DNA from: a virus
Taxonomy: Duplodnaviria > Caudoviricetes
Direction: 5' to 3' (one strand)
IMG/VR virus record: IMGVR_UViG_2835163134_000004
Location: 1,570 to 65,569 of that record
DNA length: 64,000 nucleotides
The notes beneath the pieces are model-generated. The model did not search any database. It was not told where the DNA came from and saw only the letters and a list, made by a program, of their open reading frames with translations. The first letter of the stretch is position 1; every line of letters starts with the position of its first letter. Shown in pieces: positions 4,323 through 61,074 of this stretch. The translations under genes were made by a program, and so were the position numbers.

Positions 4323-4489
4323 CAGCGCGACCCGGCACGGCATTGCGGCGGCTCAGGATCGTTCACATCCCAGGCCAAGTTGCACTTCGCGCACACCATT
4401 TGGTCACTGTATTGCCGAGCAACACATGCGGGCCGGGTGTCGGCGGCTTGCGCCGCAATGAACCGCTCATAGGCTTCCTTGATCCGCAT
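4322..4489 (-). CDS. Small Cys-containing hypothetical protein (55 aa)
   Basis: MRIKEAYERF...CVARQYSDQMVCAKCNLAWD; coupled to the polymerase start (TGATG). Confidence 0.6.
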   Translation of the reverse strand: MRIKEAYERFIAAQAADTRPACVARQYSDQMVCAKCNLAWDVNDPEPPQCRAGSR

Positions 4490-8436: not shown

Positions 8437-10920
8437 ATGTTGGAACAGGCGGTCGGCCTATCGGAAATCGGCTTTGCGCTGCATTGGCTGCATCAGCGGT
8501 CAAAGCGGCCCATCGGCAAGGATTGGGCGAATAAGCCCGTAAACTCGCCCCAGAAATTGCGGGATACATTCGACCCCAAGTTCAACTTGGGTGTCCGTCT
8601 CGGAAAATGGTCAAACCTCAGCGGGTTTTTCCTTTACATCATCGACGTTGATATTCGTAAGCCCGAACTTGCCCAGGACGCGCTGGACAAGCTGGGCGAC
8701 ATGCTGCCCGAATTGAACACGCATGTCGCGCCCTGCGTCGTGTCGGGTTCGGGGGGCGCAAGCCGTCACTATTACCTGCTTTGCGACAAGCCTTTCCCGT
8801 CACGGAAGTTCGCCCATAGCCCCAGCTTCACGCTGGTATGGGATGACGACAAGGGCCGTGACGTTAAGAAGTGGGATTGGGAACTCCACTTGCTTGGCAC
8901 TGGTTCGCAGGCCGTAATTCCGCCCTCGATCCACCCCGATACCGGCAAGCGGTATAAATGGATCAGGGAGTTTGACAGGTTCGACTTCGAGTTCGGCGCA
9001 ATCGACCCGGTTCCTGCCGAAGCCTTGGAGCGGCTTGTCGGCTATGAAAGCGTTGGGGAGATAAACCCCGAACGCCTTCGGCCCATGGGGCTGAGCCTGA
9101 GCGACATGCGGGATTACCTCGTTGACCTGCCGGTTGAAACGTGGGTCGAGGACCGTGACGGCTGGTATCGCCTCGGCATGGCGATTCACCACGAAACGGC
9201 GGGCAGCGTTGCGGGTTTCGACCTGTGGTGTGAGATTTCGCGCCAGTCGAAGAAGTTCGATGAGCGGGACTCCAAGCGGGTCTGGAAATCGTTCAGGGAC
9301 CGCAGCGACCGCCTGCCGTTCCGCATGGCTTCTATCGTGGCCGTGGTCAACGACATGCGGATGGAAAGCGAGTTCGAGGACTACGGCGAGGATGATCTTG
9401 ACGCCGAGGTGGCGGCGGCCCGCGCCGAGGACGAAGGCACGACGCCGGGCATGTTCGATGACCTGTTGGGCGACGCCAACGGGAAGGTGCCGGGTCGCAA
9501 GCCCTCGAAGTCCCAAGTGGCTCTGGCGCGGCAGCAAGCCGAAGATGCGCTTGGCAAAGAGGTGCCGAAATGGATCAGGCGCATGAACCAGAAGCACGCC
9601 CTTCTTCGCAACGAGGGGCGGACTGTGGTGATGGATTTCAAGGCGAACGGTGACGTTGCGTTCGGCTCTGTGTCCGATCTTCATCAGCTATATGAAAACG
9701 ACCGGCGCCCGAAAGACGATACCACGGTGCCGGTGTCGAAGCTGTGGATGCAGCATAGCGGGCGAAGGACTTACCCCAATGGGGTGGTGTTTCTGCCAGG
9801 CAAAGACCTCGAAGGGACATACAACTATTGGCAGGGCTTTTCCGTTGAGCCTGACGGCACGAAGTCGTGCGCGCTTTTCCTGCGCCACCTCCGCGAAGTC
9901 TATTGCCAGAACGACGAAGACCTTTTCAGTTACCTGATCCGGTATTTCGCCCATCTGGTCCAGCAGCCCGAGGACAAACCGGGGGTCGCGCTGGTGGTTC
10001 GCGGCGGCAAGGGCTGGGGCAAGGACACGCTGTTCGAATACATCGGGCGCCTGTGCATGAACCACTACGTCGGCGTGTCGCACAAGGATCATGTCGTCGG
10101 CAAGTTCAACCACCACGTTATGAAATGCCTCGTCCTCCACATGGAAGAAGCATTTTGGGCCGGTGATAAAGCCGCCGATGGCCAGCTAAAGAGCCTGATC
10201 ACAAGGCCGACGATCCTCATCGAACCCAAGGGGTTGAATCCCTTCACAATGAACAGCGTGCTGCGCCTGTTCATCACATCGAACGAAGATTGGGTTGTGC
10301 CAGCGACGCCGGGCGAACGCCGGTATTGCGTGTTGGACGCCAGTTCGAAACATAAGGGGAACCACGCCTATTTCCGCGCATTGCGGGCCGAGATGGACGG
10401 CGATGGTCCTGCGGCATTGCTGTATCACCTCCTGAATATCGACCTCACCGGCTTCGAAGTAAGGGAAGTGCCGAATACCGCTGCCTTGGGTGAACAGAAA
10501 CTTCAGGGCCTCAAGAACGTGGACCGCTGGTGGTTCGACGTTCTTCAGCAGGGTTACATCGAAGGGTTCGGCCGCGAAGCGGACAATATCGACACGCTGT
10601 CATGGGCCAATGGCGAAGTGAGAGTTGCGAAGGCCGAATTGCGAGAGGTATATGAGCGGTGGCTGAGAACTAGGCGCTATGACGGCGAGGCGCTTTCCCC
10701 GGTCCATTTCACGAAACGCCTGCGCTACCTGCTTCCCGGTATGGTATTGACCAGGTATCGCGGATCAGCGGGACTCGCCCAGGGGTTCGTAATTCCTGAT
10801 TTGCAGCGCGCCAGGACCGAGTTCGAAACCGCCATTGGATCGGTGATCAATTGGGAAGGCGAAGGCGCCGTTGTCGATGAAACGGAAGACGATGATCTGA
10901 GCAATGGCGAGGGGGATTGA
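8437..10920 (+). CDS. Bifunctional primase-polymerase / PriCT-2 / SF3 helicase (DUF5906-type)
   Basis: N-terminal NLGVRLG, IIDVD and GRHYY-like (SRHYY) prim-pol motifs; PriCT-2 RDGWYRLGMAIH...W..SF; Walker A GGKGWGKDT; MEEAF and ITSN motifs. Confidence 0.9.
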   Translation: MLEQAVGLSEIGFALHWLHQRSKRPIGKDWANKPVNSPQKLRDTFDPKFNLGVRLGKWSNLSGFFLYIIDVDIRKPELAQDALDKLGDMLPELNTHVAPCVVSGSGGASRHYYLLCDKPFPSRKFAHSPSFTLVWDDDKGRDVKKWDWELHLLGTGSQAVIPPSIHPDTGKRYKWIREFDRFDFEFGAIDPVPAEALERLVGYESVGEINPERLRPMGLSLSDMRDYLVDLPVETWVEDRDGWYRLGMAIHHETAGSVAGFDLWCEISRQSKKFDERDSKRVWKSFRDRSDRLPFRMASIVAVVNDMRMESEFEDYGEDDLDAEVAAARAEDEGTTPGMFDDLLGDANGKVPGRKPSKSQVALARQQAEDALGKEVPKWIRRMNQKHALLRNEGRTVVMDFKANGDVAFGSVSDLHQLYENDRRPKDDTTVPVSKLWMQHSGRRTYPNGVVFLPGKDLEGTYNYWQGFSVEPDGTKSCALFLRHLREVYCQNDEDLFSYLIRYFAHLVQQPEDKPGVALVVRGGKGWGKDTLFEYIGRLCMNHYVGVSHKDHVVGKFNHHVMKCLVLHMEEAFWAGDKAADGQLKSLITRPTILIEPKGLNPFTMNSVLRLFITSNEDWVVPATPGERRYCVLDASSKHKGNHAYFRALRAEMDGDGPAALLYHLLNIDLTGFEVREVPNTAALGEQKLQGLKNVDRWWFDVLQQGYIEGFGREADNIDTLSWANGEVRVAKAELREVYERWLRTRRYDGEALSPVHFTKRLRYLLPGMVLTRYRGSAGLAQGFVIPDLQRARTEFETAIGSVINWEGEGAVVDETEDDDLSNGEGD

Positions 10921-11932: not shown

Positions 11933-11994
11933 TGATGCCAAAGGCAAACAGTCGAGCGTAAGCTCTGAGCGGCATCACTACCCCAGCGTATTTC

Positions 11995-12336
11995 CTAGTC
12001 ACTGTCGCGCAGTGCGTCCCTCAGAGCGTCGTCAACCATTTTGTCGAAGGTCAGTTGGTCAGGATCGTCCTTGCCGTAGGGGTAGTTCGGCTCCGCGTCC
12101 AGGATCACACTCCTGATGAAGTCCCCCTTGAGTTCCCCTGCCATCATCTTCCCGAGACGTTTGGCAACGTTGGTTTCAATTTTTGCCCGCTGTCGATCCA
12201 TCTGTTCAACTGCGTCAGTCAACCTGCTGAGTGCGTCGATGAGTAGATCGCTCGGGTGAACGCCATCGCTGTTAAGCGCAAGCTTGGCACTGGAAAGTTG
12301 ACGTCTAATCTCAGCGAAATCATAAGGTTGTGACAT
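11995..12336 (-). CDS. Hypothetical protein, lower-GC insert
   Basis: Opposite strand to its neighbours and visibly more AT-rich; divergent from 12434. Confidence 0.55.
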   Translation of the reverse strand: MSQPYDFAEIRRQLSSAKLALNSDGVHPSDLLIDALSRLTDAVEQMDRQRAKIETNVAKRLGKMMAGELKGDFIRSVILDAEPNYPYGKDDPDQLTFDKMVDDALRDALRDSD

Positions 12337-12433
12337 GACTTTCCCTAACTTTGTTGTTCGGTGTAGCACCTAGCTTGATACTATATGCCTTGCGAGATTA
12401 CACTCAACCGCAATTTGAAAAACGGAGGTGGGA

Positions 12434-13108
12434 ATGAGTTCACCGGAAATTTGGGCGACGGTAGTGTTTCTTGGAGTTTGCTTCCTGAGTTATCTAGTTT
12501 ACGGCCCTGCGCCTTCATCCGAACTGCATGACACAAATTCTGGGGAGGTTGTCAGTTTAATTGACCTTGGATCGCGTGCTCCCAAGGCGGCTGGCATATA
12601 CCATGCTGTTTTGATACGACAATCTGGTAATGTTTATCGCGATCTTGGGCTATTTCCGTCGGCGCAGGCGGCACTGGCCGAGGCGTGTAAATCTTTTCGT
12701 AGGGCGAGCGTTGAGATGGTGCGTATTACACATTGCGACGAGACTTCAATGGCGGTCTATCGCAAAATTTACAATTTTCGGGGGCGAGCGGAAGGCAAAA
12801 AATTAGCAGGCGTCACTATCAGGCTTGTTGAAGCTGCTCCCTCGCGTCCCATTGATCAACTGGAAATTAGTTTCCGGGATGCTGAGAATAAGGGGGGAAC
12901 AAAATGGGTAGTCTACTTCAATTACCGTTGCAAAAAGTGCGGAGGAACAAAAATTGAAACACCGGATGCGAAGAATGAACTTGGCGTGGTATTTTGCGAA
13001 GGGTGTGGGCATAATTTTGGAACTCTTGCGGAGGTATCCGAGTTGTCCAATAGAAAAGCCGAATATGAGGTTCTACGGTTAGAATCAGAGCGGGCCGGAG
13101 GGAGGTGA
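12434..13108 (+). CDS. Membrane-anchored hypothetical protein with C-terminal Zn-finger (moron-like)
   Basis: GGAGG SD; N-terminal hydrophobic helix; CKKCG...CEGCG; low GC. Confidence 0.7.
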   Translation: MSSPEIWATVVFLGVCFLSYLVYGPAPSSELHDTNSGEVVSLIDLGSRAPKAAGIYHAVLIRQSGNVYRDLGLFPSAQAALAEACKSFRRASVEMVRITHCDETSMAVYRKIYNFRGRAEGKKLAGVTIRLVEAAPSRPIDQLEISFRDAENKGGTKWVVYFNYRCKKCGGTKIETPDAKNELGVVFCEGCGHNFGTLAEVSELSNRKAEYEVLRLESERAGGR

Positions 13109-13115
13109 AATAGGA

Positions 13116-13697: not shown

Positions 13698-13779
13698 CCC
13701 TTGCCATGGATTCCATCGCCTCGATCCTATTCCGTCGCGGTGCGCCGAAGCGAGGCGTGACGCGGGCCGAATTTGGGCC

Positions 13780-14096
13780 GTTCAGGGTTGTTACCCTGAA
13801 CAGTTCAGGGTAAAAAATCGCCACCCTGAACACCTAAGTCTATGATATTTATGACGAAAAGACTGGTGTTCAGGGTGTGCAGGGTAAAATTGGGGAAAAT
13901 CGCCAGGAATCTGGGAAAAGCGTCTCAAAGTAGTTCAATGATTAAACTATATCAGATTTTCAGGAATCAGGATGAAAAACCACCATGAACACCCTGAACA
14001 CCCTGAACACTACCATATATTCCAAGTAAAATATAATAAATATATATACTTAGGGTGTTCAGGGTAGTGTTCAGGGTAAACCCATATGTTCAGGGT
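13780..14096. repeat. Iteron-like 9-bp repeats around an AT-rich core (candidate replication origin)
   Basis: ACCCTGAAC at 13793, 13823, 13991 and 14000; its complement GTTCAGGGT at 13780, 13803, 13868, 14057, 14069 and 14088; AT-rich tract at about 14010-14050. Confidence 0.75.
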
Positions 14097-14107
14097 AAAC
14101 CTTCCTT

Positions 14108-14337
14108 CGTTCGATCCTATATTATTTCAAGCCTAAATAGTTGCAAATGCAATTGAATAGGATCGAACGAGTGGGGTATTTTGATACCACTGAAAATGGG
14201 GGTAAAAATTTCGGGTCGCCCCGGCTCAAAATCCGTCGATACGTTCCATCCGTCGATAGGATCGAACGGAAAACCGGGCCAGCGATGGAACCTATCCCAT
14301 CCGTCGATACGTTCCATCCGTCGATAGGATCGAACGG
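14108..14337. repeat. 13-bp ATAGGATCGAACG motif (4 copies) and a 39-bp direct repeat
   Basis: Inverted copy at 14108-14120; direct copies at 14157, 14256 and 14324; identical 39-mers at 14231-14269 and 14299-14337. Confidence 0.85.
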
Positions 14338-14544
14338 CGGGCCAGCCGACAGCATCACCCCGGTTCACAGCCGTGGCCCGGTTGTCGGTTGAGCGTCAGT
14401 CTCGAAATCGACGCGGATTGTCAGTAGGTCGTCGGTTTGGAAAGTGGCACGGCCGCAGAACCGCAATGCCGCTGAACCGGAGTGCCGTCAGACGCGGGGA
14501 ATTGGGCGTTTCCACCGAAAAAACTGAAAAAGTGCCGATCAACC

Positions 14545-14590
14545 GAGCCTCGGAGCCTCCCCCCGGCAGGGCCTGGGCCGGGAAGGACCC
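14545..14590 (-). other. Candidate cos site (cosQ-like plus G-rich nick region)
   Basis: Minus strand reads GGGTCCTTCC...CCGGGGGGAGGCTCCG. GGGTCCT equals lambda cosQ and precedes a G-rich run at lambda-like spacing; the terminase is GpA type. Confidence 0.4.
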
Positions 14591-14604
14591 GAAGCCAAGC
14601 CCTG

Positions 14605-14810
14605 CCGGGCCAGCGGATCGACGGGGGAACGGATCGACGGGGGAACGGATCGACGGGGGAACGGATCGACGGGGGAACGGATCGACGGGGGAACGGATCG
14701 ACGGGGGAACGGATCGACGGGCCAGCGGATCGACGGGCCAGCGGATAGACGGGCCAGCGGATCGACGGGCCACGCCGGGCCAGACGGATCGACGGGGGAA
14801 CGGATCGACC
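14605..14810 (+). repeat. 16-bp tandem array GGATCGACGG(GGGAAC/GCCAGC)
   Basis: Six consecutive GGATCGACGGGGGAAC from 14615, four GGATCGACGGGCCAGC-type units from 14711, one more GGGAAC unit at 14786 and a hybrid unit at 14802. Confidence 0.95.
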
Positions 14811-15008
14811 GGCCCGGCGCCTTGGCGTGCTGATCCTCGAGCGGCTGGCGTGCTGATCCTCGAGCGGCTGGCGTGCTGATCCTCGACCGGCCCGGCGCCC
14901 TGATCCTCGACCGGCCCGGCGCCCTGATCCTCGACCGGCTGGCGCCCTGATCCTCGACCGGCTGGCGCCCTGGCGCCCCGATCCTCGACCGGCACGCGGC
15001 GCCCTGGC
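14811..15008 (+). repeat. 23/24-bp modular array A1 (7 units)
   Basis: GATCCTCGA[C/G]CGGC[T|CC]GGCG[CCCT|CCCC|TGCT]; cores at 14832-14980. Confidence 0.95.
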
Positions 15009-15009
15009 G

Positions 15010-15070
15010 TCAAAACTTGTTATTGCCCGATCAACAAAAGGTTGACCGCGTAACGCGGCAATGGCAGATT
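15010..15070 (+). promoter_or_regulatory. Early promoter with operator palindrome (copy 1)
   Basis: TCAAAAC..GTTATTG...TCAACAAAAGGTTGACCGC; TCAAC-N5-GTTGA at 15031-15045; TTGACC-N17-CAGATT. Confidence 0.7.
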
Positions 15071-15100
15071 AAGACGTGACGCGAATCTAGGGGAATTGAA

Positions 15101-15319
15101 ATGATCAAAGATGAATTGACCATTTGGCGCCTGACGTGGAGTCATGCGACCGGCGTTTATTGGCTGGCAATGCGCCTTTGCCAGCGTGACGACTCCGAGG
15201 CTTGGCTGGATATTTTCCGCAAAGATGAGCGCGGCGTTACCTTTGCGGCAAGCCGCAAGAAACCCGCTTTGCCTGACAATGCGCGCCAAATGGCGCGGCA
15301 TGTTGCAATGTTTCGCTGA
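15101..15319 (+). CDS. Hypothetical protein, early cassette 1
   Basis: First ORF after the promoter; GGGGA SD. Confidence 0.7.
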   Translation: MIKDELTIWRLTWSHATGVYWLAMRLCQRDDSEAWLDIFRKDERGVTFAASRKKPALPDNARQMARHVAMFR

Positions 15320-15333
15320 TAGGAGTCGATCCG

Positions 15334-15744
15334 ATGAAAACCAGTGTAACCAACAAAATCACCACGGGGCATTTCAGCCTGCGCGACTCCTTTGATATTC
15401 CCGCAGGCACGCCGGTAATCTTCGGGGCGCCGGATTGTGACGGGAAGCCTTTCCCGCATTGGGTGCTGGCCGAAGAAACCGCCGCGCGGCTTTCCGGCAA
15501 TCCGCACGACGCCGCGCGGCGGTTTATCGTGGTGCATCCCGATCACGTCACCCCGGCGCCGGGTGACGGCTACGCCGCACAACTGGCTCATAGCCGCGCC
15601 AATTTGCCAACGCTGGCCGAAGTCAGGGCCATGGCCCGGCGTGAAAAGCGGGAAATTGTGCAGCGCGTGCTTATGGCGGATGACACAATTGCCTGTATCA
15701 AAGCTGGGCCGCGTGGCGGCCTGAAGATTCTCGGCCGGTTTTAA
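15334..15744 (+). CDS. Hypothetical protein, early cassette 1
   Basis: AGGAG SD; tight operon packing. Confidence 0.7.
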   Translation: MKTSVTNKITTGHFSLRDSFDIPAGTPVIFGAPDCDGKPFPHWVLAEETAARLSGNPHDAARRFIVVHPDHVTPAPGDGYAAQLAHSRANLPTLAEVRAMARREKREIVQRVLMADDTIACIKAGPRGGLKILGRF

Positions 15745-15758
15745 GGGGAGTCCAGACA

Positions 15759-15983
15759 ATGCGCCCCCTGATCACTGGCCCGAAGCTGGCAACCGATGAA
15801 TATATCTATTCGCGCGGCAAGGCGTCGCGCGACGCGGCCGAAGAACGGATTGAGTCGCTGATCTGTGAAGGGGAGATAAGCCCGGCGGAAAAGCCGCGTG
15901 CCGCGCGTTACACGCTGGCCGATGGCGTCACAGCACGCTGGGCCATTGTTTTGACCGATACCGCCCTTTCGCCCTACGTCTGA
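15759..15983 (+). CDS. Hypothetical protein, early cassette 1
   Basis: GGGGAG SD; last ORF before the terminator. Confidence 0.7.
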   Translation: MRPLITGPKLATDEYIYSRGKASRDAAEERIESLICEGEISPAEKPRAARYTLADGVTARWAIVLTDTALSPYV

Positions 15984-15986
15984 TCC

Positions 15987-16026
15987 GCACGCCAGCACGC
16001 CAGCACGCCAGCACGCCAGCACGCCG
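15987..16026 (+). repeat. 8-bp tandem repeat (GCACGCCA)x~5
   Basis: Four perfect copies and one variant; reverse complement of the TGGCGTGC module of the 23/24-bp arrays. Confidence 0.9.
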
Positions 16027-16060
16027 GGCCGCCCTACATAGGGCGGCCATTTGCTTTTCT
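16027..16060 (+). terminator. Rho-independent terminator of cassette 1
   Basis: GGCCGCCCT-ACAT-AGGGCGGCC followed by ATTTGCTTTTCT. Confidence 0.75.
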
Positions 16061-17250
16061 GGCCCGGCGCCCCGATCCTCGACCGGCTGGCGTGCTGATC
16101 CTCGAGCGGCCCGGCGCCCCGATCCTCGACCGGCCCGGCGCCCCGATCCTCGACCGGCCCGGCGCCCCGATCCTCGACCGGCCCGGCGCCCTGATCCTCG
16201 ACCGGCTGGCGCCCTGATCCTCGACCGCCCCGGCGTGCTGATCCTCGACCGGCTGGCGTGCTGATCCTCGACCGGCTGGCGCCCTGATCCTCGACCGCCC
16301 CGGCGCCCTGATCCTCGACCGGCTGGCGCCCTGATCCTCGACCGGCTGGCGCCCTGATCCTCGACCGGCTGGCGTGCTGATCCTCGAGCGGCTGGCGCCC
16401 CGATCCTCGAGCGGCCCGGCGTGCTGGCGTGCTGATCCTCGACCGGCTGGCGCCCTGATCCTCGAGCGGCTGGCGCCCTGATCCTCGAGCGGCTGGCGCC
16501 CCGATCCTCGAGCGGCCCGGCGTGCTGGCGTGCTGATCCTCGACCGGGCTGGCGCCCTGGCGCCCTGATCCTCGACCGGGCTGGCGCCCTGATCCTCGAG
16601 CGGCTGGCGCCCTGATCCTCGAGCGGCTGGCGTGCTGGCGCCCTGATCCTCGACCGGCCCGGCGTGCTGATCCTCGAGCGGCCCGGCGCCCTGATCCTCG
16701 AGCGGCCCGGCGCCCTGATCCTCGACCGGCTGGCGCCCTGATCCTCGACCGCCCCGGCGTGCTGATCCTCGACCGGCCCGGCGTGCTGATCCTCGAGCGG
16801 CTGGCGTGCTGGCGTGCTGATCCTCGAGCGGCTGGCGCCCCGATCCCCGACCGGCCCGGCGCCTGATCCTCGAGCGGCTGGCGCCCCGATCCCCGACCGG
16901 CCCGGCGCCTGATCCTCGAGCGGCTGGCGCCCCGATCCTCGACCGGCCCGGCGCCCTGGCGTGCTGATCCTCGAGCGGCTGGCGCCCCGATCCTCGAGCG
17001 GCCCGGCGCCCTGATCCTCGACCGGCTGGCGCCCCGATCCTCGACCGGCCCGGCGTGCTGATCCTCGAGCGGGCTGGCGCCCTGATCCTCGAGCGGCTGG
17101 CGCCCTGATCCTCGAGCGGCTGGCGCCCCGATCCTCGACCGGCTGGCGTGCTGATCCTCGAGCGGCCCGGCGCCCCGATCCTCGACCGGCCCGGCGCCCC
17201 GATCCTCGAGCGGCTGGCGCCCCGATCCTCGACCGGCTGGCGCCCTGGTG
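16061..17250 (+). repeat. 23/24-bp modular array A2 (48 units)
   Basis: 48 GATCC[T/C]CGA cores counted between 16074 and 17224; period 23-24 bp, or 31-32 bp where an extra 8-mer is present. Confidence 0.98.
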
Positions 17251-17311
17251 TCAAAACCCGTTATTGCGTGGTCAACAAAAGGTTGACCGCATAACCTGAA
17301 ACCGGCAATCT
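17251..17311 (+). promoter_or_regulatory. Early promoter with operator palindrome (copy 2)
   Basis: Near copy of 15010-15050 (TCAAAAC..GTTATTG...TCAACAAAAGGTTGACCGC); operator at 17272-17286; TTGACC-N17-CAATCT. Confidence 0.7.
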
Positions 17312-17348
17312 AAACACACGGCGAATCGCGCCTGAAAGGAACGCAGGA

Positions 17349-17546
17349 ATGGATAACCTTTTGCCTTTTGCGAACCATGCCAGCGGCTTTAACGCCGCGC
17401 GGGCCGGTATCGCTGCGGAATACATTAGGCGCAATTTTGCGTCGCGGAACAATTGCCGCGCCAGCGCGGCCTATAATCGGGCCGCGTTGCGAGATGCTTG
17501 CGCCGCGTTGCGTTGCGGCAAAGCCTTGGGAGTCGTGAAATGCTGA
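17349..17546 (+). CDS. Hypothetical protein, early cassette 2
   Basis: AGGA SD; first ORF after the promoter. Confidence 0.6.
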   Translation: MDNLLPFANHASGFNAARAGIAAEYIRRNFASRNNCRASAAYNRAALRDACAALRCGKALGVVKC

Positions 17547-17749
17547 TCCGCGCCGCCAAGCCGCGCCCCGTCATCATTGCGGCCCGGAAAGCCGCGCGCG
17601 CCGCTGGGGCGATGACCTACGCCGGGAATCCGTGTCACGCCGGGCATGATGGGACTCGCTACACCGCAACGCGGCAATGCGTGGCTTGCGCCAAGGCGGC
17701 CCGGCTGGCCCAGACCGAACGCGAAAAAGCCGAAAGGGGCGCCAAATGA
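17540..17749 (+). CDS. Small Zn-binding hypothetical protein
   Basis: GNPCHAGHDGTRYTATRQCVAC, a C-H-C-C motif often seen in phage proteins. Confidence 0.65.
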   Translation: MLIRAAKPRPVIIAARKAARAAGAMTYAGNPCHAGHDGTRYTATRQCVACAKAARLAQTEREKAERGAK

Positions 17750-17823
17750 GTTTCGCCGCTGGACTGGCCCTTGCCGTGATCTGCGCCGGGCTTTTCGCAA
17801 CTTGGGCCGCGCCGCGCCTTTAG
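17746..17823 (+). CDS. Putative small membrane peptide (25 aa)
   Basis: MSFAAGLALAVICAGLFATWAAPRL; ATGA-coupled; below the ORF-track cutoff. Confidence 0.45.
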   Translation: MSFAAGLALAVICAGLFATWAAPRL

Positions 17824-17862
17824 CGGGCCATTTGATCAACAAAAAGTGGAGCAAGAAACACG

Positions 17863-18861
17863 ATGACGAACAAAACACCATGGCAACGCGCCACGGCCCC
17901 GGATTGCACGCTTTCCGAAGCGTGGCACGCCTCGCCCTATGTCAGCACCGAAGCCGCGCCCCGCAATATCGCTTTGGTCCGGGCTTTCCGGTTTCATCGC
18001 GGCCGCATGGTCGGGCCGCGCGCCTTGCGCATCAGCGCCACGGCCGCCTTGGCTTTCGCGCAGCAGGACGTGGAACAGGGCAAAGCCCGCTGGCCCGGCC
18101 ATGGCACCACCCAAGCCGGGGCGCCGGATGAGCAAGGCTTGCGCTATGTCGAGAACCCGACCGCCATGGGCCTTCGGCTTGTCGGCTATGTCCGGCCCGA
18201 GTTCCGTCATGCCCGCGTCTGGCATGACGGCGATATGGGGTATTACGACAACCCCTATTCCGAGTCGTGCCGCGACGGTTCAGGGCTGATTTATGGCGTG
18301 GTTTATCAACTGCCGGGCCGGAACGGCGAGTCGCGCTTCGTCGCGGGTTACGTCGCGGGCGGGGATTGTGGCGACGGCGCAACCATTGATTTGGGCCGGG
18401 TCTTCACCGATCCGCGCGGCGATTATTACGCAGCGCCGGGCGACCTCGACGCGGCACGCGACGCGGCCCGCGCGGCCGACTCCATCGCGGAACACGCGGC
18501 GGAACAGGCGCGGGAACATGAAACGGCTTGGCGCGCCGGAAGCGAATGGCGTGAAGCCGTGGAACGGATCAAAGACGCGCGCCGGGAATATTACGCCTTG
18601 AACGCTGAGCGGCGGATGATGCGCCGCCGTATTGGCGCGATGCCCGGCGTTGAATTGATCTGCGCCACGATCCGCAAAAATCTTTTGGCCCTGGCCGATG
18701 AAATCGGAGAGGCGCGGGACCGCATGACCGAATTGGCGCGGGACCGCATGACCGAATTGGCGCGGGGCGACTGTTCCACGCTCTGCTTTTACCCCAGCGA
18801 CGTTTTGCGGGCCGCGTTTTGCGACGGCGCCGACTTGCCGCTCGACGCATTCCCGGCCTGA
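17863..18861 (+). CDS. Hypothetical protein (332 aa) with an in-frame 24-bp tandem duplication
   Basis: Long ORF; ARDRMTEL duplicated at 18711-18758. Confidence 0.8.
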   Translation: MTNKTPWQRATAPDCTLSEAWHASPYVSTEAAPRNIALVRAFRFHRGRMVGPRALRISATAALAFAQQDVEQGKARWPGHGTTQAGAPDEQGLRYVENPTAMGLRLVGYVRPEFRHARVWHDGDMGYYDNPYSESCRDGSGLIYGVVYQLPGRNGESRFVAGYVAGGDCGDGATIDLGRVFTDPRGDYYAAPGDLDAARDAARAADSIAEHAAEQAREHETAWRAGSEWREAVERIKDARREYYALNAERRMMRRRIGAMPGVELICATIRKNLLALADEIGEARDRMTELARDRMTELARGDCSTLCFYPSDVLRAAFCDGADLPLDAFPA

Positions 18862-18898
18862 AACCCGCAACACAGCCTGAAGCAAGGAAACCCGAACG

Positions 18899-19666
18899 AT
18901 GACTTTCACGCTTGACGACGCCAAAGCCATGGCCCCGGAAAATGCTTTTGACGTGACGGCGGAAAACTACGTCGCCCGCTGGAAGACTCCGAATGAATAT
19001 CACCGCGAAGGCTATGTGACTGGCGCGCGTTTCGCGGCTTTCGCCTTGGCCCGCGACATTTTGACCGAATTGCAGCCCGAGTTGACGGGCTGGACCGTCG
19101 CCACCTATGACAACGAACCCGCCACGCTCAACTCCGACCGGGTTTCGCTGCGGAAAGGCCCGGCCCGTATTTGGCTGACGTGCCAATCTTGGGGCGCGGC
19201 CGGGTTTCAGCGTGTGAAATTCCAAGCCTATTGCGTGTCGGAAGACAATCGCAGCGGCCCGAGTGTTGAAGCCAGTGCGGCGCTTGACCGTGGCGCGGCC
19301 GCCATCGCCAAGGAAATCAAGCGCCGCATCCTGCCCCGGCTGGAAGATTTGACCAAGGCGCAAAACACCAAAGACAAGGCGGCCCGTGAAACGGCCGCGC
19401 GTTTTGCCGCCAAGCTGGAAAAGTTGATCCGCAAATACCCCGATCTGCGGATCAAGGCGGAACAGCCCGAAAAGGCCGATTACATCAGCGTAAGCACGAA
19501 ATACGGCGCCGCCATTTCCGCCGATCTGCGGATCTATGAAACGTCGGCTCGGCCCGACGGTGAATTGGTTTGGCGCGCAATGCCGCGCAGCGGCTACGGG
19601 GTTTCGATTGACGACATTGACTCCAAGGCGGGCCGCGAATTTTTCGCCCTGCTTAATCGTGCGTGA
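18899..19666 (+). CDS. Hypothetical protein (255 aa)
   Basis: AAGGA SD; long ORF in operon orientation. Confidence 0.8.
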   Translation: MTFTLDDAKAMAPENAFDVTAENYVARWKTPNEYHREGYVTGARFAAFALARDILTELQPELTGWTVATYDNEPATLNSDRVSLRKGPARIWLTCQSWGAAGFQRVKFQAYCVSEDNRSGPSVEASAALDRGAAAIAKEIKRRILPRLEDLTKAQNTKDKAARETAARFAAKLEKLIRKYPDLRIKAEQPEKADYISVSTKYGAAISADLRIYETSARPDGELVWRAMPRSGYGVSIDDIDSKAGREFFALLNRA

Positions 19667-19670
19667 CACG

Positions 19671-19793
19671 ATGAACAGCCCCGCAATGCAATGGCTTGGC
19701 GATGCAATCGGCGCCCTGACTCTGGTTATCGGCTTCCCGTTCGGGGCGCCCTACGCCGTGGCGCTGATCCGCGCCGCCTTGTCCTATCTTTGA
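19671..19793 (+). CDS. Putative small membrane peptide (40 aa)
   Basis: MNSPAMQWLGDAIGALTLVIGFPFGAPYAVALIRAALSYL. Confidence 0.5.
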   Translation: MNSPAMQWLGDAIGALTLVIGFPFGAPYAVALIRAALSYL

Positions 19794-19815
19794 AACTCCA
19801 ATAGGGGAATCCGCA

Positions 19816-20307
19816 ATGCCGAAATTTGTGATGGATGGCCGCGACGAAGCGGCGCGCCGGGAAAGCCAATTCGTTTTCGGTTTCATCGAAGCAATGTTTT
19901 TCACGGAAACCGAACCCGGAACCTGTATCGCGGAATGGCATGACGCCGAAGCCGTGGCGATGCGGGAATCCGGTCAATGGGCCGCGCTTCCCGGTGATGC
20001 GGGTTATACCGATCTGCACCCCGACACGCTGGCCCGGATTCGCGCGGATTGCGAAGCCTGGCAAAACGCCCATGTCGATCTTTTGGCGCTGGCCTATGAC
20101 CGGCCCGGATATGATGAGGCGCAAGCCGGGCGGGACTATTGGTTTACCCGCAACGGCCACGGAGTCGGCTTTTGGGACCGCAAGGAATTGCGGGCCGATG
20201 ATCTGGGCGAAAAACTTTCGCAGGCGTGCCGCTACAGCGAATTGAACCCGTTTTTCGGCAACCATGTGAGCCATGGTGACGCGCCATTCGTTCACCTCGA
20301 CATTTAA
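19816..20307 (+). CDS. Conserved-looking phage hypothetical protein
   Basis: AGRDYWFTRNGHGVGFWDR motif typical of a widespread uncharacterised phage early protein; GGGGA SD. Confidence 0.75.
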   Translation: MPKFVMDGRDEAARRESQFVFGFIEAMFFTETEPGTCIAEWHDAEAVAMRESGQWAALPGDAGYTDLHPDTLARIRADCEAWQNAHVDLLALAYDRPGYDEAQAGRDYWFTRNGHGVGFWDRKELRADDLGEKLSQACRYSELNPFFGNHVSHGDAPFVHLDI

Positions 20308-20324
20308 CGCAAGGAATAACCGCG

Positions 20325-20468
20325 ATGTTGCACCCCGACGACGACCTTAGCCCAAAGCAACGCCGCGCCGTGGCGCGCCATTGGCACCGCCTGCAAGTCA
20401 CCCTGCCCGGCATGGGCGCGGGGCGGCGCATCTCGACCCGCAACCCGATCAAGGAGTCGGCCAAATGA
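20325..20468 (+). CDS. Small hypothetical protein (47 aa)
   Basis: AAGGA SD; stop overlaps the next start. Confidence 0.5.
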   Translation: MLHPDDDLSPKQRRAVARHWHRLQVTLPGMGAGRRISTRNPIKESAK

Positions 20469-20788
20469 TGGCACCCCGCCAAATGCCGCGCCGCTATCTC
20501 GACGGCGCCCCGCCAATTGTCGCGGCGCAAGTTCTGGACCTGTTCCGCATCACCCCGGCCGCGCCGCTGGATTTTGACCTGATCCTGAAGCCCGATCCGG
20601 CCGACTCCGAAGTGCTTGGCCTGGACTTCGGCGCCTATGGCACGCGGGGCACGCATTTTTTCCTGACCCGCCATGAGGCGCGCGCCTATCGTGCCAGGAA
20701 CAGCCGCCGCCGCGTGGCATGGGCCGATCTGCCGACCGCCACGCAACGCGCGATTGTGGCATATCTGGAATGGGACCCCGCCGAATGA
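20465..20788 (+). CDS. Hypothetical protein
   Basis: AAGGAG SD; ATGA coupling on both sides. Confidence 0.65.
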   Translation: MMAPRQMPRRYLDGAPPIVAAQVLDLFRITPAAPLDFDLILKPDPADSEVLGLDFGAYGTRGTHFFLTRHEARAYRARNSRRRVAWADLPTATQRAIVAYLEWDPAE

Positions 20789-21030
20789 CTCTTTCCGTCA
20801 AGCTGATCATCGGGGCGAATGCCTATGCTTGCGTCACGCATGACGCGGGCCAGACAGACATTCGCCTTTCGCCGGGTAAATCCGCCGTCGCTTCGCTTCG
20901 GGAATACGCCACGGAATGCGAAGCGCGCGCCGCGCGGGAAAAGGACAAGGCGGAACTGGCACGCCGGGCCGCCGATCATTTGGAACGTGACGCCGGGCCG
21001 GGACTGGCGCGACGCGGCGCCCCGGTCTAG
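20785..21030 (+). CDS. Hypothetical protein
   Basis: ATGA-coupled ORF, MTLSVKLIIG... Confidence 0.6.
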   Translation: MTLSVKLIIGANAYACVTHDAGQTDIRLSPGKSAVASLREYATECEARAAREKDKAELARRAADHLERDAGPGLARRGAPV

Positions 21031-21040
21031 GCTTTTCCGC

Positions 21041-22279
21041 ATGACGACCGCACCGCAAGCCATTGCTCTGGGCCGAGGCGGCCGCAACGCCCCCGGAATC
21101 CCGCTGCACCTCCTGACGCGGCACGCCCTTGTTACGGGCCAGACCGGCACGGGCAAAACCGTAACGCTATTGAGCGTTGCGGAACAGCTTTCGCGGGCCG
21201 GGGTGCCCTTGCTTCTGCCCGACGTGAAAGGCGATCTAAGCGCCATTGCGCGAAGCGTTCCCGGCGTCACGCGGCTGGACGTGATGAGCGGCGCGGCCCA
21301 GATACCGCTTTGGGACTTCGGCGCCGATCTTCTGGGCCGCGCGATGGAACTAAGCGAACCCCAAGCCGCTACCCTGGAAATTGTTTTTGCCTGGGCCGAT
21401 GACACGGGCGCCCCGCTCGACACGCTGGCCGATCTTCGGGCCGCGCTGGCCCGCGTGCTGGGCCAGCGCGACGCGGTTTCGCGGCATTACGGCTATGTTT
21501 CGCAAGTCAGCCTTGGAGTCGTTCAACGCGGCGTGCTGCGACTGGAACGCGCCGGGGCGGCCCCGATCTTCGGCCCGGCCCGGCTTGACATTGCGGCGCT
21601 GGTGGATCAACCGGGCCGCGTGACCCTGCTAGACGCGACGCGGCTCTTTCAATCGCCCCGGCTTTACGGCGCGGTAATGCTACGGCTGTTGCGGGAATTG
21701 TGGCGCCGTTTCCCGGAACGGGGCGACGCGGCCCGGCCCCGGTTCGCTCTGGCAATAGATGAGGCGCACGCCCTTTTTGCTGAAGCTGGCCCGGCGTTGC
21801 TGCGCCAGACGGAACAGACGGCCCGGCTTATCCGTTCCAAAGGCGTCGCCCTGATCCTCGCCAGTCAGATGGAGTCTGACGTTCCTGCCATCGTGGCGGA
21901 ACAATGCGCCAGCCGTATCAGGCACGATAGGGCGCTAGGCATCGGTCGGGCCGAACTTGTGACGCTGGACCGCGCCTCGGGCCGGGCCACGGCGCCGGAA
22001 ATTGTATGTCCCGTCATGCCGGATTGCGGCACGGCGCCTTGCGACGCCGTGCCCGCGATGACGCTGGCACCAGCGTCGCGCCCCGCTGATCCGGCCGCGC
22101 CGATTAGCGCCGAACCGTGGCGCGACGCCGGGGCGGTATTGGCCGCGCTGCTTTTCGTCGCCGCGCCTATCGTCGCCGTGGCCCTGATCGTCTGGGGCGG
22201 CGGTGGAGCCTTCCTTTTCGGTGTTTTGCTGGCCCTTGGCCTAGTATTCCTGTTCAACCCGCCCCGGCCCGGCGGTTGA
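21041..22279 (+). CDS. HerA/FtsK-family ATPase (DUF853/YjgR-like), shortened, with C-terminal transmembrane hairpin
   Basis: RHALVTGQTGTGKTVTL..AEQLSRAGVP....DVKGDLS (YjgR-like Walker A region), AIDEAH Walker B, RLIRSKGV and two hydrophobic helices at the C-terminus. Confidence 0.8.
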   Translation: MTTAPQAIALGRGGRNAPGIPLHLLTRHALVTGQTGTGKTVTLLSVAEQLSRAGVPLLLPDVKGDLSAIARSVPGVTRLDVMSGAAQIPLWDFGADLLGRAMELSEPQAATLEIVFAWADDTGAPLDTLADLRAALARVLGQRDAVSRHYGYVSQVSLGVVQRGVLRLERAGAAPIFGPARLDIAALVDQPGRVTLLDATRLFQSPRLYGAVMLRLLRELWRRFPERGDAARPRFALAIDEAHALFAEAGPALLRQTEQTARLIRSKGVALILASQMESDVPAIVAEQCASRIRHDRALGIGRAELVTLDRASGRATAPEIVCPVMPDCGTAPCDAVPAMTLAPASRPADPAAPISAEPWRDAGAVLAALLFVAAPIVAVALIVWGGGGAFLFGVLLALGLVFLFNPPRPGG

Positions 22280-22325
22280 AATACGACGGGCCGCCGCACC
22301 AATCCGCCCCAGGTTCTAACCATGG

Positions 22326-22358
22326 CCCGCGCCACGCAAGGCGCGGGTTTTCGCTGTT
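22326..22358 (+). terminator. Rho-independent terminator of cassette 2
   Basis: CCCGCGCC-ACGCAA-GGCGCGGG followed by TTTTCGCTGTT. Confidence 0.75.
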
Positions 22359-23180
22359 CCGGCTGGCGCCCTGGCGCCCTGATCCTCGAGCGGCCCGGCG
22401 CCCTGGCGTGCTGATCCTCGACCGGCCCGGCGCCTGATCCTCGAGCGGCCCGGCGCCCCGATCCTCGAGCGGCCCGGCGCCCCGATCCTCGAGCGGCCCG
22501 GCGCCCTGATCCTCGACCGGCCCGGCGTGCTGGCGTGCTGATCCTCGACCGGCTGGCGTGCTGATCCTCGACCGGCTGGCGCCCCGATCCTCGAGCGGCC
22601 CGGCGCCCCGATCCTCGACCGGCCCGGCGTGCTGATCCTCGACCGGCTGGCGTGCTGATCCTCGACCGGCTGGCGCCCCGATCCTCGAGCGGCCCGGCGC
22701 CCCGATCCTCGACCGGCCCGGCGTGCTGGCGCCCCGATCCTCGAGCGGCCCGGCGCCCCGATCCTCGACCGGCCCGGCGTACTGGCGCCCCGATCCTCGA
22801 GCGGCCCGGCGCCCTGATCCTCGAGCGGCTGGCGCCCTGATCCTCGAGCGGCCCGGCGCCCCGATCCCCGACCGGCTGGCGCCCCGATCCTCGACCGGCC
22901 CGGCGCCCCGATCCTCGAGCGGTCCGGCGCCCTGATCCTCGAGCGGCCCGGCGCCCCGATCCCCGACCGGCTGGCGCCCCGATCCCCGACCGGCTGGCGC
23001 CCCGATCCTCGACCGGCCCGGCGCCCCGATCCTCGAGCGGCCCGGCGCCCTGGCGCCCCGATCCTCGAGCGGCCCGGCGCCCTGGCGGCCCGATCCCCGA
23101 CCGGCTGGCGCCCCGATCCCCGACCGGCTGGCGCCCCGATCCCCGACCGGCTGGCGCCCCGATCCCCGACCGGCTGGCGG
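22359..23180 (+). repeat. 23/24-bp modular array A3 (32 units)
   Basis: 32 cores counted between 22381 and 23161; same grammar and orientation as A1 and A2. Confidence 0.98.
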
Positions 23181-23705
23181 TCAATCTACCAGAAGCCCGG
23201 CGCGCCGGGCTTCTTGCATGAGCCATTCGTGGTTGTCCAAGCCGTCAACCTTGGCGTCACTTGGGTCAATTCGCCTTGGGGGATACCCCGTCGCCGTCAC
23301 GGAGTCGCATGTGAAATCGCCCCTGATAACCGCGCCGTGTAGGTTCTGGGCGTCAAACTCGACAACCCATTGCCAGTTGATCGGGTTCGGCGGGTTGGCT
23401 TTCCATTCTTCCCGCCGCTGATCCCATTGGCGCGTTTCGTGGCCCATTGCGCCCGGCCTTGGGGCGAAGCCAGCCATGTATTCCTCTGGCGTCATAGCGA
23501 ATTGGTATAGCTTGGCATCGCGGCGCTTGTATGTCGCAGGCGATATTATCCTATCTAGGAACGCGGTTTCACAACTCGCAAGCCACGCGGTTCCGCTGCG
23601 ATTTTCGTATTCCCGGTATCCGAAATATAGCATGGCGCCAAAACCGATTGCCACACCTACGCCTATTAGATTCACACGCTTCAGCGCCACGTCATCCCGC
23701 TCCAA
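23181..23705 (-). CDS. Membrane-anchored hypothetical protein (moron-like, antisense to the early operon)
   Basis: N-terminal helix LIGVGVAIGFGAMLYFGY; stop codon abuts the last unit of array A3. Confidence 0.75.
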   Translation of the reverse strand: MERDDVALKRVNLIGVGVAIGFGAMLYFGYREYENRSGTAWLASCETAFLDRIISPATYKRRDAKLYQFAMTPEEYMAGFAPRPGAMGHETRQWDQRREEWKANPPNPINWQWVVEFDAQNLHGAVIRGDFTCDSVTATGYPPRRIDPSDAKVDGLDNHEWLMQEARRAGLLVD

Positions 23706-25986: not shown

Positions 25987-26301
25987 ATGATTGACCTCAG
26001 CGCAATGACCCTCAGCGAATTGCGGGTCTTGGAACGCCATGTCGCAAAAGCAATTGGCGATTACGAGAACCGCAAGAAGCGGGAGGCGCTGGCCGAAATG
26101 AAGGCCCTTGCGGCGCAACACGGCTTCACCTTCAACGACCTCGGGCTTGAAGATGCTGCACCGAATACCCGTGCCCCGGCCAAGCCGAAATACGCCAATC
26201 CCGCCGATCCGACCCAGACTTGGAGCGGGCGGGGCCGAAAGCCGGGATGGGCCATTGATGCGCTGGCCCAAGGCAAGACGCTGGACGATCTGGCGATCTG
26301 A
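25987..26301 (+). CDS. hns: H-NS-family nucleoid protein (HvrA/Spb-like)
   Basis: DLSAMTLSEL N-terminus and PKYANP...TWSGRGRKPGW DNA-binding signature. Confidence 0.92.
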   Translation: MIDLSAMTLSELRVLERHVAKAIGDYENRKKREALAEMKALAAQHGFTFNDLGLEDAAPNTRAPAKPKYANPADPTQTWSGRGRKPGWAIDALAQGKTLDDLAI

Positions 26302-29789: not shown

Positions 29790-30101
29790 ATGGCGAAGTG
29801 CAAACTTAGCAATTGCCGGGAAGAAGCTGTCACTTTTGCCGCAAAGCGATACTGCCCCGCCCACCTCGCGGAATACAAACGGAAGCAGCGGGAATTTCTC
29901 GCCGTCCGAGCCACGCTGCGGTGCTGTGAAACCTGCGGGGAAAAGTTGACGAAAACCGGAAACGACAATGGTGATACCCTTTGTCGTTCCTGCCAAACCG
30001 AGGCGCGGACCAAGCGCCTTGCGGAACTGAAACAACGGCAATTCGACAGTGCTGAAACAGTCGAAGCCCTGAAAGACTGGATGAGGGAATACCTTCTATG
30101 A
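29790..30101 (+). CDS. Zn-finger hypothetical protein
   Basis: CKLSNC...YCPAH and CETCG...LCRSC. Confidence 0.7.
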   Translation: MAKCKLSNCREEAVTFAAKRYCPAHLAEYKRKQREFLAVRATLRCCETCGEKLTKTGNDNGDTLCRSCQTEARTKRLAELKQRQFDSAETVEALKDWMREYLL

Positions 30102-31042
30102 CCATCACCGCCAAAGTGATCCAGCGCAGCCGCCAAGCCTCGGGCGATTATCCCGACCTGATCACGCTGCAATTGCGGTATCCCCGCTTTATCCATGCCG
30201 AGGCCAAGACCCATCGCCTGATCCGCATTGATGATGCGGAATATGAGTTCCTACAGGAAATCTCGCTGATGGATGACGAGAACCTGAGCCGGAATGCCAG
30301 CAGCAGCCGCGCCGTCCCCGTTGAGCGCATGATCCAGGATGTGCTGGATGATCCCGCAATGCCGGTGGCGTGGGGCAGCAACAAGCCGGGGATGCAGGCC
30401 GGGGCCGAACTAGCCCACTGGCCCTTGGCCCGCGACTGCTGGCTTGACGCCCGCGACGCTGCCGTGGCCCGCGCGAAAGAAATGCTCAACCTCGGCGCAC
30501 ACAAGCAGATCGTGAACCGACTGCTGGAACCCTTCGGGCATATCAGCGTCGTCGTCACCGCGACGGAATGGGATAACTTCTTCGCCCTGCGCTGCCACGC
30601 CGATGCCGATCCTACGATGCGGGCCTTGGCCGAGGCAATGCGGGCCGCGATTGCGGAATCGGAGCCGACAGAAGCCGTTGGCCTCGAAACCCAACGGTGG
30701 CACTTGCCCTATACCATGGTGCGGGATTGGGACTATGCCTTCAGCCTCATCGGCGGCCCGAACGGTGGCCCGCACCCCTTCAGGACGCTTGCCATGATCA
30801 GCGCGGCGCGCTGTGCCCGCGTGTCCTACCTGAACCACGATGGGACCGCGCCCGATGTTGCGAAAGACCTCGCTTTGGCCCGCAGGCTGCTTGAATCCCG
30901 GCACATGTCCCCCTTCGAACACCAAGGCCAGGCGCCCGATCCGAACGACATGGACACGTCCCGCTGGGGCAATTTCACGGGCTGGGATCAGTTTCGCAAG
31001 ATTGCTGAAATCGCAACTACTTCTGTCGAGGCTGCGCAATGA
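30098..31042 (+). CDS. thyX: Phage-type FAD-dependent thymidylate synthase (ThyX/Thy1-like)
   Basis: YPRFIHAE..THR...SRNASSSRAVP, HKQIVNRLLEPF, SAARCARVSY and HMSPFEHQ. Confidence 0.85.
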   Translation: MTITAKVIQRSRQASGDYPDLITLQLRYPRFIHAEAKTHRLIRIDDAEYEFLQEISLMDDENLSRNASSSRAVPVERMIQDVLDDPAMPVAWGSNKPGMQAGAELAHWPLARDCWLDARDAAVARAKEMLNLGAHKQIVNRLLEPFGHISVVVTATEWDNFFALRCHADADPTMRALAEAMRAAIAESEPTEAVGLETQRWHLPYTMVRDWDYAFSLIGGPNGGPHPFRTLAMISAARCARVSYLNHDGTAPDVAKDLALARRLLESRHMSPFEHQGQAPDPNDMDTSRWGNFTGWDQFRKIAEIATTSVEAAQ

Positions 31043-61034: not shown

Positions 61035-61074
61035 GTGTCTCACCCTGTCGCAAGCTGCATCATTTGGTGCGTAT

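Follow-up and report, generated by a model that had tools for sequence, protein, structure and literature searches.

The early region of a prophage in a Gemmobacter genome contains three large arrays, A1, A2 and A3, built from 87 copies of one modular 23/24-bp repeat. The arrays lie in a 64,000-nucleotide stretch of IMG/VR record IMGVR_UViG_2835163134_000004 (positions 1,570 to 65,569 of that record), hereafter the window. They form a real, unusually large structure, at the extreme of a feature that occurs family-wide and has been little studied. Because the position and grammar of such arrays are conserved while their sequence is private to each phage, as co-evolving protein/site pairs produce, the arrays are read here as phage-specific multi-site binding platforms for a putative DNA-binding protein at the boundaries of early operons. 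This interpretation is favoured, but it is held tentatively, with somewhat less than even confidence.

Structure and grammar of the repeat arrays

Tandem Repeats Finder (TRF) detects three tandem blocks with a 23/24-bp period in the window (14823-15009, 16061-17247 and 22368-23174). A scan with the 12-nt core GATCCYCGASCG returns 87 sites (7 + 48 + 32), all on the plus strand and none outside the three blocks; in shuffled sequences, the core is expected 0.11 times on average and at most twice. The two methods agree on the arrays of 7, 48 and 32 units reported by a first-pass annotation of this DNA. The summed array DNA amounts to ~2.18 kb, with a GC content of ~70% compared with 61% for the whole window.

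Each unit follows the grammar GATCC[T/C]CGA[C/G]CG-GC-[T/CC]-GGCG-[CCC/TGC][C/T], to which an extra 8-bp module, GGCG(YSC)Y, is optionally added. The grammar is matched exactly by 73 of the 87 units, and all deviations are located in the tail, with none in the core. The deviating internal units (12 units, ~7 distinct variants) leave the 10 fixed core positions without even a rare variant, a pattern that fits stronger constraint on the core. Core-to-core spacing is restricted to 22-24 or 31-32 bp, so no degenerate core is hidden in the arrays, and the longer spacings reflect one added 8-bp module. In total, ~30 unit variants are arranged in non-periodic order, and most of the common variants occur in both A2 and A3.

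The single orientation described in the first-pass annotation holds for whole units but not for the 8-bp tail module, because five copies of the module are inverted (15987-16033) ahead of the terminator that precedes A2. The arrays are non-coding, as had been proposed, since the mixed periods of 23, 24, 31 and 32 bp keep no reading frame. Long minus-strand open reading frames across A2 and A3 are stop-free through composition only, and a coding repeat protein is rejected because these frames run over units of no constant period.

The array copy numbers are provisional, as the assembly (4.66 Mb, 76 contigs) is short-read in appearance. In an orphan contig of 435 bp from the same assembly (C57), 13 array units are joined to 110 bp that no other contig contains. 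There must therefore be one more array junction or several, C57 marking a fourth junction or an unplaced variant.

Occurrence of the unit in other genomes

In the collections searched, tandem copies of the unit are confined to this prophage and the orphan contig. A 14-nt unit pattern has 95 matches in the host genome, comprising 80 in the three arrays, 12 on C57 and 3 single copies on three contigs, and with a looser 12-nt core, 17 single copies fall on ten other contigs. A pattern of two tandem units gave no match in IMG/VR and only two chance matches, both inside genes, in ~185,000 species genomes. An interspersed host repeat family (REP/BIME-like) is rejected, as only scattered single copies occur beyond the arrays and C57, and tandem units are absent elsewhere. 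Searches of host, phage and species genomes thus matched the unit to no known host repeat family. When relatives were sought in IMG/VR and 400 family genomes through the primase, a 332-aa early protein and TerS, few matches were obtained and none carried the unit.

Position of the arrays at early-operon boundaries

The window corresponds to positions 221419-285418 of contig C45, a 300-kb chromosomal contig of the Gemmobacter genome, and its gene content and order match those of Ruegeria DSS3-P1, a chi-like phage of the Casjensviridae. The element is an integrated chi-like prophage of ~65 kb rather than a free phage genome, as indicated by the tyrosine integrase gene, the flanking host kinase gene and the chromosomal contig. 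A gene for a CI-like helix-turn-helix repressor is located immediately left of the window, with the host kinase gene beyond it.

The candidate genome end proposed in the first-pass annotation is substantiated by window positions 14540-14600, which align with the sequence formed when the two physical ends of DSS3-P1 (right and left) are joined. In relatives, the cos ends carry 12-nt 5′ overhangs (PMC8601537). All three arrays are found on the early-gene side of this cos-like site, in keeping with their reported confinement to the early region beside the genome end. Repeat DNA begins ~45 bp from the site, next to the origin-like region. A1 starts ~250 bp from the site and adjoins it together with a separate 16-bp array, and A2 and A3 are 1.5 and 7.8 kb away. 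The 16-bp array is the best candidate for cosB, the terminase-binding site, and its GATCGACGG motif also adjoins the left end of DSS3-P1.

The order terminator, array and promoter-like segment is observed around two early operons, with an intrinsic terminator (16027-16048) preceding A2 and a hairpin preceding A3. The arrays therefore sit at the boundaries of early transcription units. A 41-nt promoter-like pattern has only two sites in the window, namely the post-array segments PE1 and PE2 (17250). The features of the region are listed in Table 1.

Table 1. Features of the prophage in window coordinates
Feature	Position	Strand	Remarks
SNF2 helicase	left edge of window		
DNA polymerase	2259-4343		
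Prim-pol/helicase	8437-10920		
Origin-like region	13760-14110	.	~10 iterons of 9 bp (GTTCAGGGT / ACCCTGAAC) in both orientations, AT-rich core; downstream of prim-pol/helicase gene; read from sequence
Two copies of ~39-bp repeat	14226-14345	.	with CCGTCGAT (= ATCGACGG on minus strand); left of cos-like site
Cos-like site	14540-14600	.	inferred virion DNA end near 14566
16-bp array, 12.6 copies	14614-14809	+	CGGATCGACGGGGGAA / ...GGCCAG; TRF; hybrid unit at 14802 grades into A1
Array A1	14811-15009	+	7 units of 23/24-bp repeat
Post-array segment PE1	15009-15100	+	GTCAAAAC..GTTATTGC..TCAACAAAAGGTTGACCGC; dyad overlapping TTGACC -35-like hexamer; upstream of first early gene
Early cassette 1	15101-15983	+	three small genes (72, 136, 74 aa), function unknown
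Inverted mini-array and terminator	15987-16048	modules on minus strand (15987-16033)	5 x 8-bp tail module, then intrinsic terminator (16027-16048)
Array A2	16061-17247	+	48 units
Post-array segment PE2	17250-17348	+	dyad and TTGACC as in PE1
Early cassette 2	17349-22279	+	~10 tightly packed genes; last encodes HerA_C/DUF853 P-loop ATPase
Terminator-like end of cassette 2	22325-22355	+	GC-rich hairpin and T-run; read from sequence
Array A3	22368-23180	+	32 units; GATCCCCGACC variant enriched toward 3′ end
Palindromic hairpin	23193-23212	.	AAGCCCGGCGCGCCGGGCTT; terminator of convergent minus-strand gene 23181-23705
Structural genes	37-60 kb		
Terminase	58094-60855		
AlpA excisionase	60852-61043		
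Tyrosine integrase	62762-64000		

The origin layout is the same in DSS3-P1, with different iterons. Within the ~39-bp repeats, minus-strand GTATCGACGG occurs at 14233 and 14301. The ATPase gene that closes early cassette 2 (20819-22279) encodes a Walker A motif (GQTGTGKT) and two predicted C-terminal transmembrane helices, and its product has weak similarity to Ced/VirB4 DNA-translocating ATPases. A homologous ATPase gene closes an early operon in the prophage of Gemmobacter caeni, and a DUF853/AAA-ATPase is annotated at the equivalent position in Rhizobium phage RHph_X2_30 and in the Rhodobacter RcD phages, a likeness by annotation only.

The PE1 and PE2 segments contain a perfect TCAAC-N5-GTTGA dyad (TCAACAAAAGGTTGA). 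Allowing up to 3 mismatches, the dyad has 22 sites between window positions 4109 and 61129, compared with 0.84 expected, examples being 15031, 17272, 17836, 26371, 27994, 31639, 50791, 53061 and 58077. Nearly all sites are intergenic, and many overlap or directly precede start codons. The dyad may be a start-associated sequence or the operator of a repressor with dispersed, 'stoperator'-like sites.

Elsewhere in the prophage, a low-GC island (~54%, 11950-13110) between the replication genes and the origin carries a minus-strand 124-aa gene and a 226-aa Zn-ribbon-like gene and looks like an acquired moron. The prophage also encodes a 104-aa protein with an H-NS C-terminal domain (window 25987-26301). 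A cluster of nucleotide-metabolism genes (ThyX-like, dNMP kinase-like and YfbR-like; window 30098-31599) may relate to DNA modification. Outside the arrays, most 6-bp palindromes are absent from the prophage: GCCGGC (69 expected), CCGCGG (64.5), CCCGGG (46.7) and CGATCG (38.7) all have zero copies, as do GTCGAC and ATCGAT, among others. The observed/expected ratios of the same palindromes in the host are 0.15-0.34.

Repeat blocks in related phages

Repeat blocks are a family trait, because relatives show them at the same places on a smaller scale, with the Gemmobacter prophages as the extreme cases. In the G. caeni prophage, which is distantly related (44-47% identity in TerL), a 20-bp repeat of 46.6 copies, spanned by the assembly over its full 932 bp, is located between the terminator of the HerA-like gene and a TTGACA promoter. 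A second array follows the next cassette, beside an AT-rich origin-like region. The units of these arrays are unrelated to the window unit. The 20-bp unit contains a 6+6 dyad, GATCGG-N4-CCGATC, at 20-bp spacing, which has the shape of a classic dimer operator, and its folding z-score is -4.6. In an IMG/VR copy of the G. caeni prophage with 99.8% identity, the sequence breaks at the large array, and the small array measures 225 bp instead of 206 bp. A metagenomic relative has one contig end that breaks inside an array and another that begins in repeat-rich sequence.

Isolated phages carry smaller blocks. In DSS3-P1 and the near-identical Ruegeria phage vB_RpoS-V16, modular arrays occupy the genome end (the left one in DSS3-P1) and a position upstream of the gene homologous to window gene 19816-20307; V16 has one extra cassette and one extra array. 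In Rhodobacter RcD phages, one ~70-bp module recurs at three cassette boundaries and is tandem near the genome end. RHph_X2_30 contains a 24-bp repeat of 4.8 copies at the genome end, ahead of the early genes. The RcD, DSS3-P1 and V16 phages belong to the same family as the window prophage and share its genome architecture. Their blocks likewise adjoin the cos end and separate short early operons, in a single orientation and with a promoter after each. They differ from the window arrays in having 2-13 copies (0.1-0.5 kb) of several module types with unrelated sequences, whereas the window has a single family with 48 and 32 copies in its larger arrays and 2.2 kb in all.

The authors of the RcD study remarked on end repeats and connected them with gene diversity, but gave no explanation for them (PMC8601537); this remark was the only one that a literature search on tandem repeats in Casjensviridae turned up. 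The first-pass view that the repeat is not a described element thus needs qualification, as similar blocks exist in relatives. What is new is the array size together with the occupation of the same positions by unrelated units.

The early cassettes are not ordered and oriented alike in the window, G. caeni and DSS3-P1. One gene pair of the first early cassette, E1-E2 (window 15107-15761), is 80% identical in nucleotide sequence to positions 201263-201913 of G. caeni contig C8. The E1 and E2 proteins are 86% and 82% identical to their G. caeni counterparts, compared with 30-50% for other proteins, which indicates a recently exchanged early module. The breakpoints of the homology fall at gene boundaries, outside the arrays. 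Many small metagenomic proteins contain a version of the C-terminal half of E2.

Two further observations concern other repeats. Caulobacter phage CcrSwift (phiCbK-like) has a 24-bp repeat of 5.7 copies just upstream of the first terminal-repeat gene (876-1012) and a homologue of window gene 19816-20307 ~4 kb from the genome end. The early region of the G. caeni prophage (C8:202690-202800) contains CCCCGCGTGGGCGGGGAAC and CCCCGCGTGAGCGGGGAAC with one ~37-bp spacer between them; we take these to resemble a type I-E CRISPR repeat, and the pair may be a phage-borne mini-CRISPR array.

Comparison with known repeat systems

Several known classes of repeat were compared with the arrays and rejected. 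A CRISPR array is incompatible with units that abut at 22-24 or 31-32 bp without spacers. Scans of the neighbouring genes with Pfam, PHROGs and NCBIfam profiles found no Cas domain or reverse transcriptase gene, and there was no Rfam match, which bears out the earlier statement that spacers and adjacent cas or reverse transcriptase genes are lacking. A known RNA or unusual folding is rejected on the absence of an Rfam match and on folding z-scores of +0.2 to +0.75. The role of replication-origin iterons is filled by the separate 9-bp GTTCAGGGT family at 13760-14110, and the arrays, at 70% GC, have no AT-rich element. An operator array for CI is rejected because the CI-like and Cro-like promoters have no unit-like site and the PE1/PE2 dyad is different. 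Mimicry of KOPS or Chi is not supported, as the most strand-skewed octamer of the host, GGGCAGGG (630 vs 71), and its neighbours are absent from the unit. In our own comparison, the unit is 2-4 mismatches from textbook DnaA boxes; no strict DnaA-box cluster was found in the host genome from which to define the host's own box.

The arrays do have the tandem direct repeats of a partition centromere (sopC/parC/parS-type). Plasmid and plasmid-prophage counterparts are F sopC (12 x 43 bp), R1 parC and P1 incA. As in these systems, head-to-tail copies of a short asymmetric site would load a cooperative filament with private specificity. The window prophage differs from them in lacking ParA/ParB and ParM/ParR, and its origin iterons form a separate 9-bp family. 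No ParB_N or ParA (AAA_31) match was found on prophage contig C45, all matches being on other contigs. The partition role suggested in the first-pass annotation is contradicted by the lack of ParA and ParB and by integration of the phage (tyrosine integrase, AlpA excisionase and flanking host genes), since an integrating phage needs no partition.

Protein p6 of phi29 binds with 24-bp periodicity close to early promoters and the ends of the genome, and what it recognises is bendability, not a repeated sequence. The arrays share with it the ~24-bp periodicity, the location beside genome ends and early promoters, and a proposed early-promoter control. They differ in that phi29 is not known to have a tandem array, and no p6 homologue turned up in the window prophage.

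Promoter-early stem-loops (PeSLs) are mobile regulatory cassettes of T4-type phages (Arbiol et al. 2010, PMC2839356). In both systems, repeated terminator and promoter DNA flanks small non-essential early genes in a hyperplastic region, and direct repeats could excise or shuffle cassettes; in the window, PE1 and PE2 form a repeated promoter segment after terminators. A PeSL is a single ~70-bp unit, whereas the window has tandem arrays of dozens. Recombination products and mini-circles have been shown for PeSLs. Comparison of relatives for PeSL-type recombination gave mixed results: V16 and DSS3-P1 differ by a cassette and an array, and cassette order differs from that of G. caeni, but E1-E2 breaks at gene edges.

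A proposed multi-site platform for a putative DNA-binding protein

In the favoured interpretation, each unit would be one asymmetric site with the invariant core GATCC-CGA-CG, and a protein encoded by the phage or the host would assemble into a long filament on dozens of such sites, spaced ~23.5 bp apart. The filament would be placed directly upstream of two early promoters and after the last early operon. There, it would insulate, silence or boost the early operons or store a pool of the binder. From the arrays with their grammar and position, their absence elsewhere and the kept position with changed sequence, we infer protein binding and its effect.

This platform is supported by a unit that is neither a host repeat nor tandem anywhere else in the viral and species-genome collections, by the intactness of all 87 window cores and by the dyad at 20-bp spacing in the G. 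caeni unit. Arrays of similar size in two independent phages (48 vs 46.6 units) also count in its favour, although the change in array length between 99.8%-identical prophages (206 vs 225 bp) tempers the size argument. The DNA-binding proteins of the window and G. caeni prophages are strongly diverged (identities of 35% for CI-like, 35% for Cro-like, 29% for TerS and 35% for AlpA), so a co-diverged binder is plausible.

Other observations weigh against the platform. The early-region products have no recognisable DNA-binding domain in the Pfam, PHROGs and NCBIfam scans, and no binder was found. The likely repressor operator at PE1/PE2 (TCAAC-N5-GTTGA) is unlike the array unit, and no array-like site is present near the CI or Cro promoters or elsewhere in the prophage. 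The window unit has neither dyad symmetry nor unusual single-strand folding. Forty-eight sites far exceed the needs of any known promoter-proximal regulator. Neutral minisatellite dynamics likewise shuffle few variants combinatorially, and the contrast between core and tail is a weak one if shared descent is taken into account (0 vs ~7 events). Finally, the copy numbers come from a short-read-like draft. A multi-site binding platform is nevertheless the most defensible of the roles proposed in the first-pass annotation, with the binding itself kept conditional.

A related, distinctly unlikely idea is a titration or loading device of a kind undescribed in phages, in either of two versions judged jointly. 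As a reservoir, the arrays would be a decoy buffering either a regulator or a protein of host defence or replication, which would yield an ultrasensitive switch in lysis-lysogeny or early expression. As tracks, they would provide oriented loading for the HerA/FtsK-like ATPase, a membrane-anchored protein whose gene lies immediately upstream of A3; the ATPase would draw phage DNA in or keep it out, in a T5-like stepwise entry with sequence-defined stops. The ejection-track and nuclease-decoy roles listed in the first-pass annotation found no direct support.

Alternative explanations

The most serious rival to the binding platform, and a possible one, is that the arrays are minisatellites that are non-adaptive or only evolutionarily useful, the 23-bp unit having arisen from the cos-proximal 16-bp GGATCGACGG family. 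Recombination near the genome end that added, removed or inverted early-gene cassettes would have left copies at cassette junctions, and slippage and unequal crossing-over would have expanded them; at most, the arrays would be PeSL-like recombination hot spots that shuffle early cassettes. The 23-bp core can be described as the 16-bp core with a CT insertion and a GC-rich tail, and the hybrid unit at 14802 joins the two families. Few variants, recombined combinatorially, are common to arrays 5 kb apart, and the inverted sub-array at 15987-16033 has 24 nt of perfect complementarity to A2 units and resembles an inversion scar. The varying cassette order and orientation among the window, G. caeni and DSS3-P1, the additional cassette and array of V16 relative to DSS3-P1 and the length difference between 99.8%-identical prophages are all consistent with such dynamics. 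In addition, the RcD authors connect end repeats to gene diversity (PMC8601537), and PeSL repeats demonstrably shuffle cassettes in T4-type phages (PMC2839356). The role of recombination substrates named in the first-pass annotation ranks as more than a side option, but the sole clearly exchanged module, E1-E2, breaks at gene boundaries and not in the arrays. Moreover, the units of different phages are unrelated, which means that they are unable to promote exchange from one of these phages to another. Despite the deletion bias of bacterial and phage genomes and the limit that cos packaging sets on spare DNA, arrays of ~1 kb are found in two separate lineages, and 87 of 87 cores are intact.

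The remaining explanations are less probable. Accessory recognition repeats for TerS, acting as extra cosB-like sites that recruit or store terminase or set the direction and processivity of packaging, are unlikely. A sub-terminal repeat block occurs on the early-gene side of cos in every relative examined, A1 is contiguous with a 16-bp array that shares GATCGACGG with the DSS3-P1 end, and TerS is strongly diverged between phages with different units. The distances of A2 and A3 from cos nevertheless argue against this function, as does the location of the largest G. caeni array, which is the one farther from the origin/cos-like region. The 2 bp inserted in the core should prevent a GATCGACGG-reading protein from recognising it, and across phages the position of the arrays is constant relative to terminators and promoters, not to cos. 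A defence decoy or sponge that soaks up a host nuclease, restriction enzyme or DNA-sensing defence protein is improbable, although CTCGAG is absent from the prophage outside the arrays (10.3 expected; observed/expected 0.25 in the host) and present 37 times inside them. Some orientation-dependent enzymes cannot cut sites in co-oriented units, but cleavable sites on its own DNA would be lethal to the phage rather than protective. The CTCGAG sequence hinges on one C/G switch position and is missing from half of the units, the units of relatives have no such site, and a search made without a positive control found no XhoI-family endonuclease in this genome. We read the restriction of CTCGAG to the arrays as tolerance in the present host combined with fast array turnover, not as evidence for a decoy. 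It is very improbable that the arrays act as RNA, whether as another structured RNA or as C-rich untranslated fail-safe terminators that load Rho between operons. The sense strand is C-rich (GC skew -0.10 to -0.12), as are, by eye, most relatives' arrays, and the arrays come after intrinsic terminators, but G still makes up ~30% of the sequence, the RNA matches no Rfam family and has no fold beyond composition, and A1 has no upstream operon to insulate. Least probable of all is an artefact or gross inflation by a short-read assembler. The assembly is a 76-contig draft in which C57 marks an unresolved junction, and related assemblies break exactly at such arrays; however, the three arrays have distinct non-periodic orders of ~30 variants and unique flanks on both sides in one 300-kb contig. 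An independent G. caeni genome spans a 932-bp array at the equivalent place, and isolated phages with determined ends carry smaller versions.

Implications

If the arrays are neutral minisatellites, they would be a plain natural example of a cos-packaged genome tolerating the growth of repeats to the kilobase scale, and they would mark the recombination by which the hyperplastic early region is built. In either case, the arrays break short-read assemblies of such prophages, which is relevant to prophage annotation. If a protein binds the arrays, chi-like phages of Alphaproteobacteria would carry a conserved, so far ignored regulatory layer. Private repeat platforms would then be present at the DNA end and at each boundary of an early operon, and their specificities would change at the pace of immunity specificities. 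Such a layer would explain the 'end repeats' of the Rhodobacter RcD phages and would help to show how early cassettes come to be insulated, kept silent in lysogens or exchanged.

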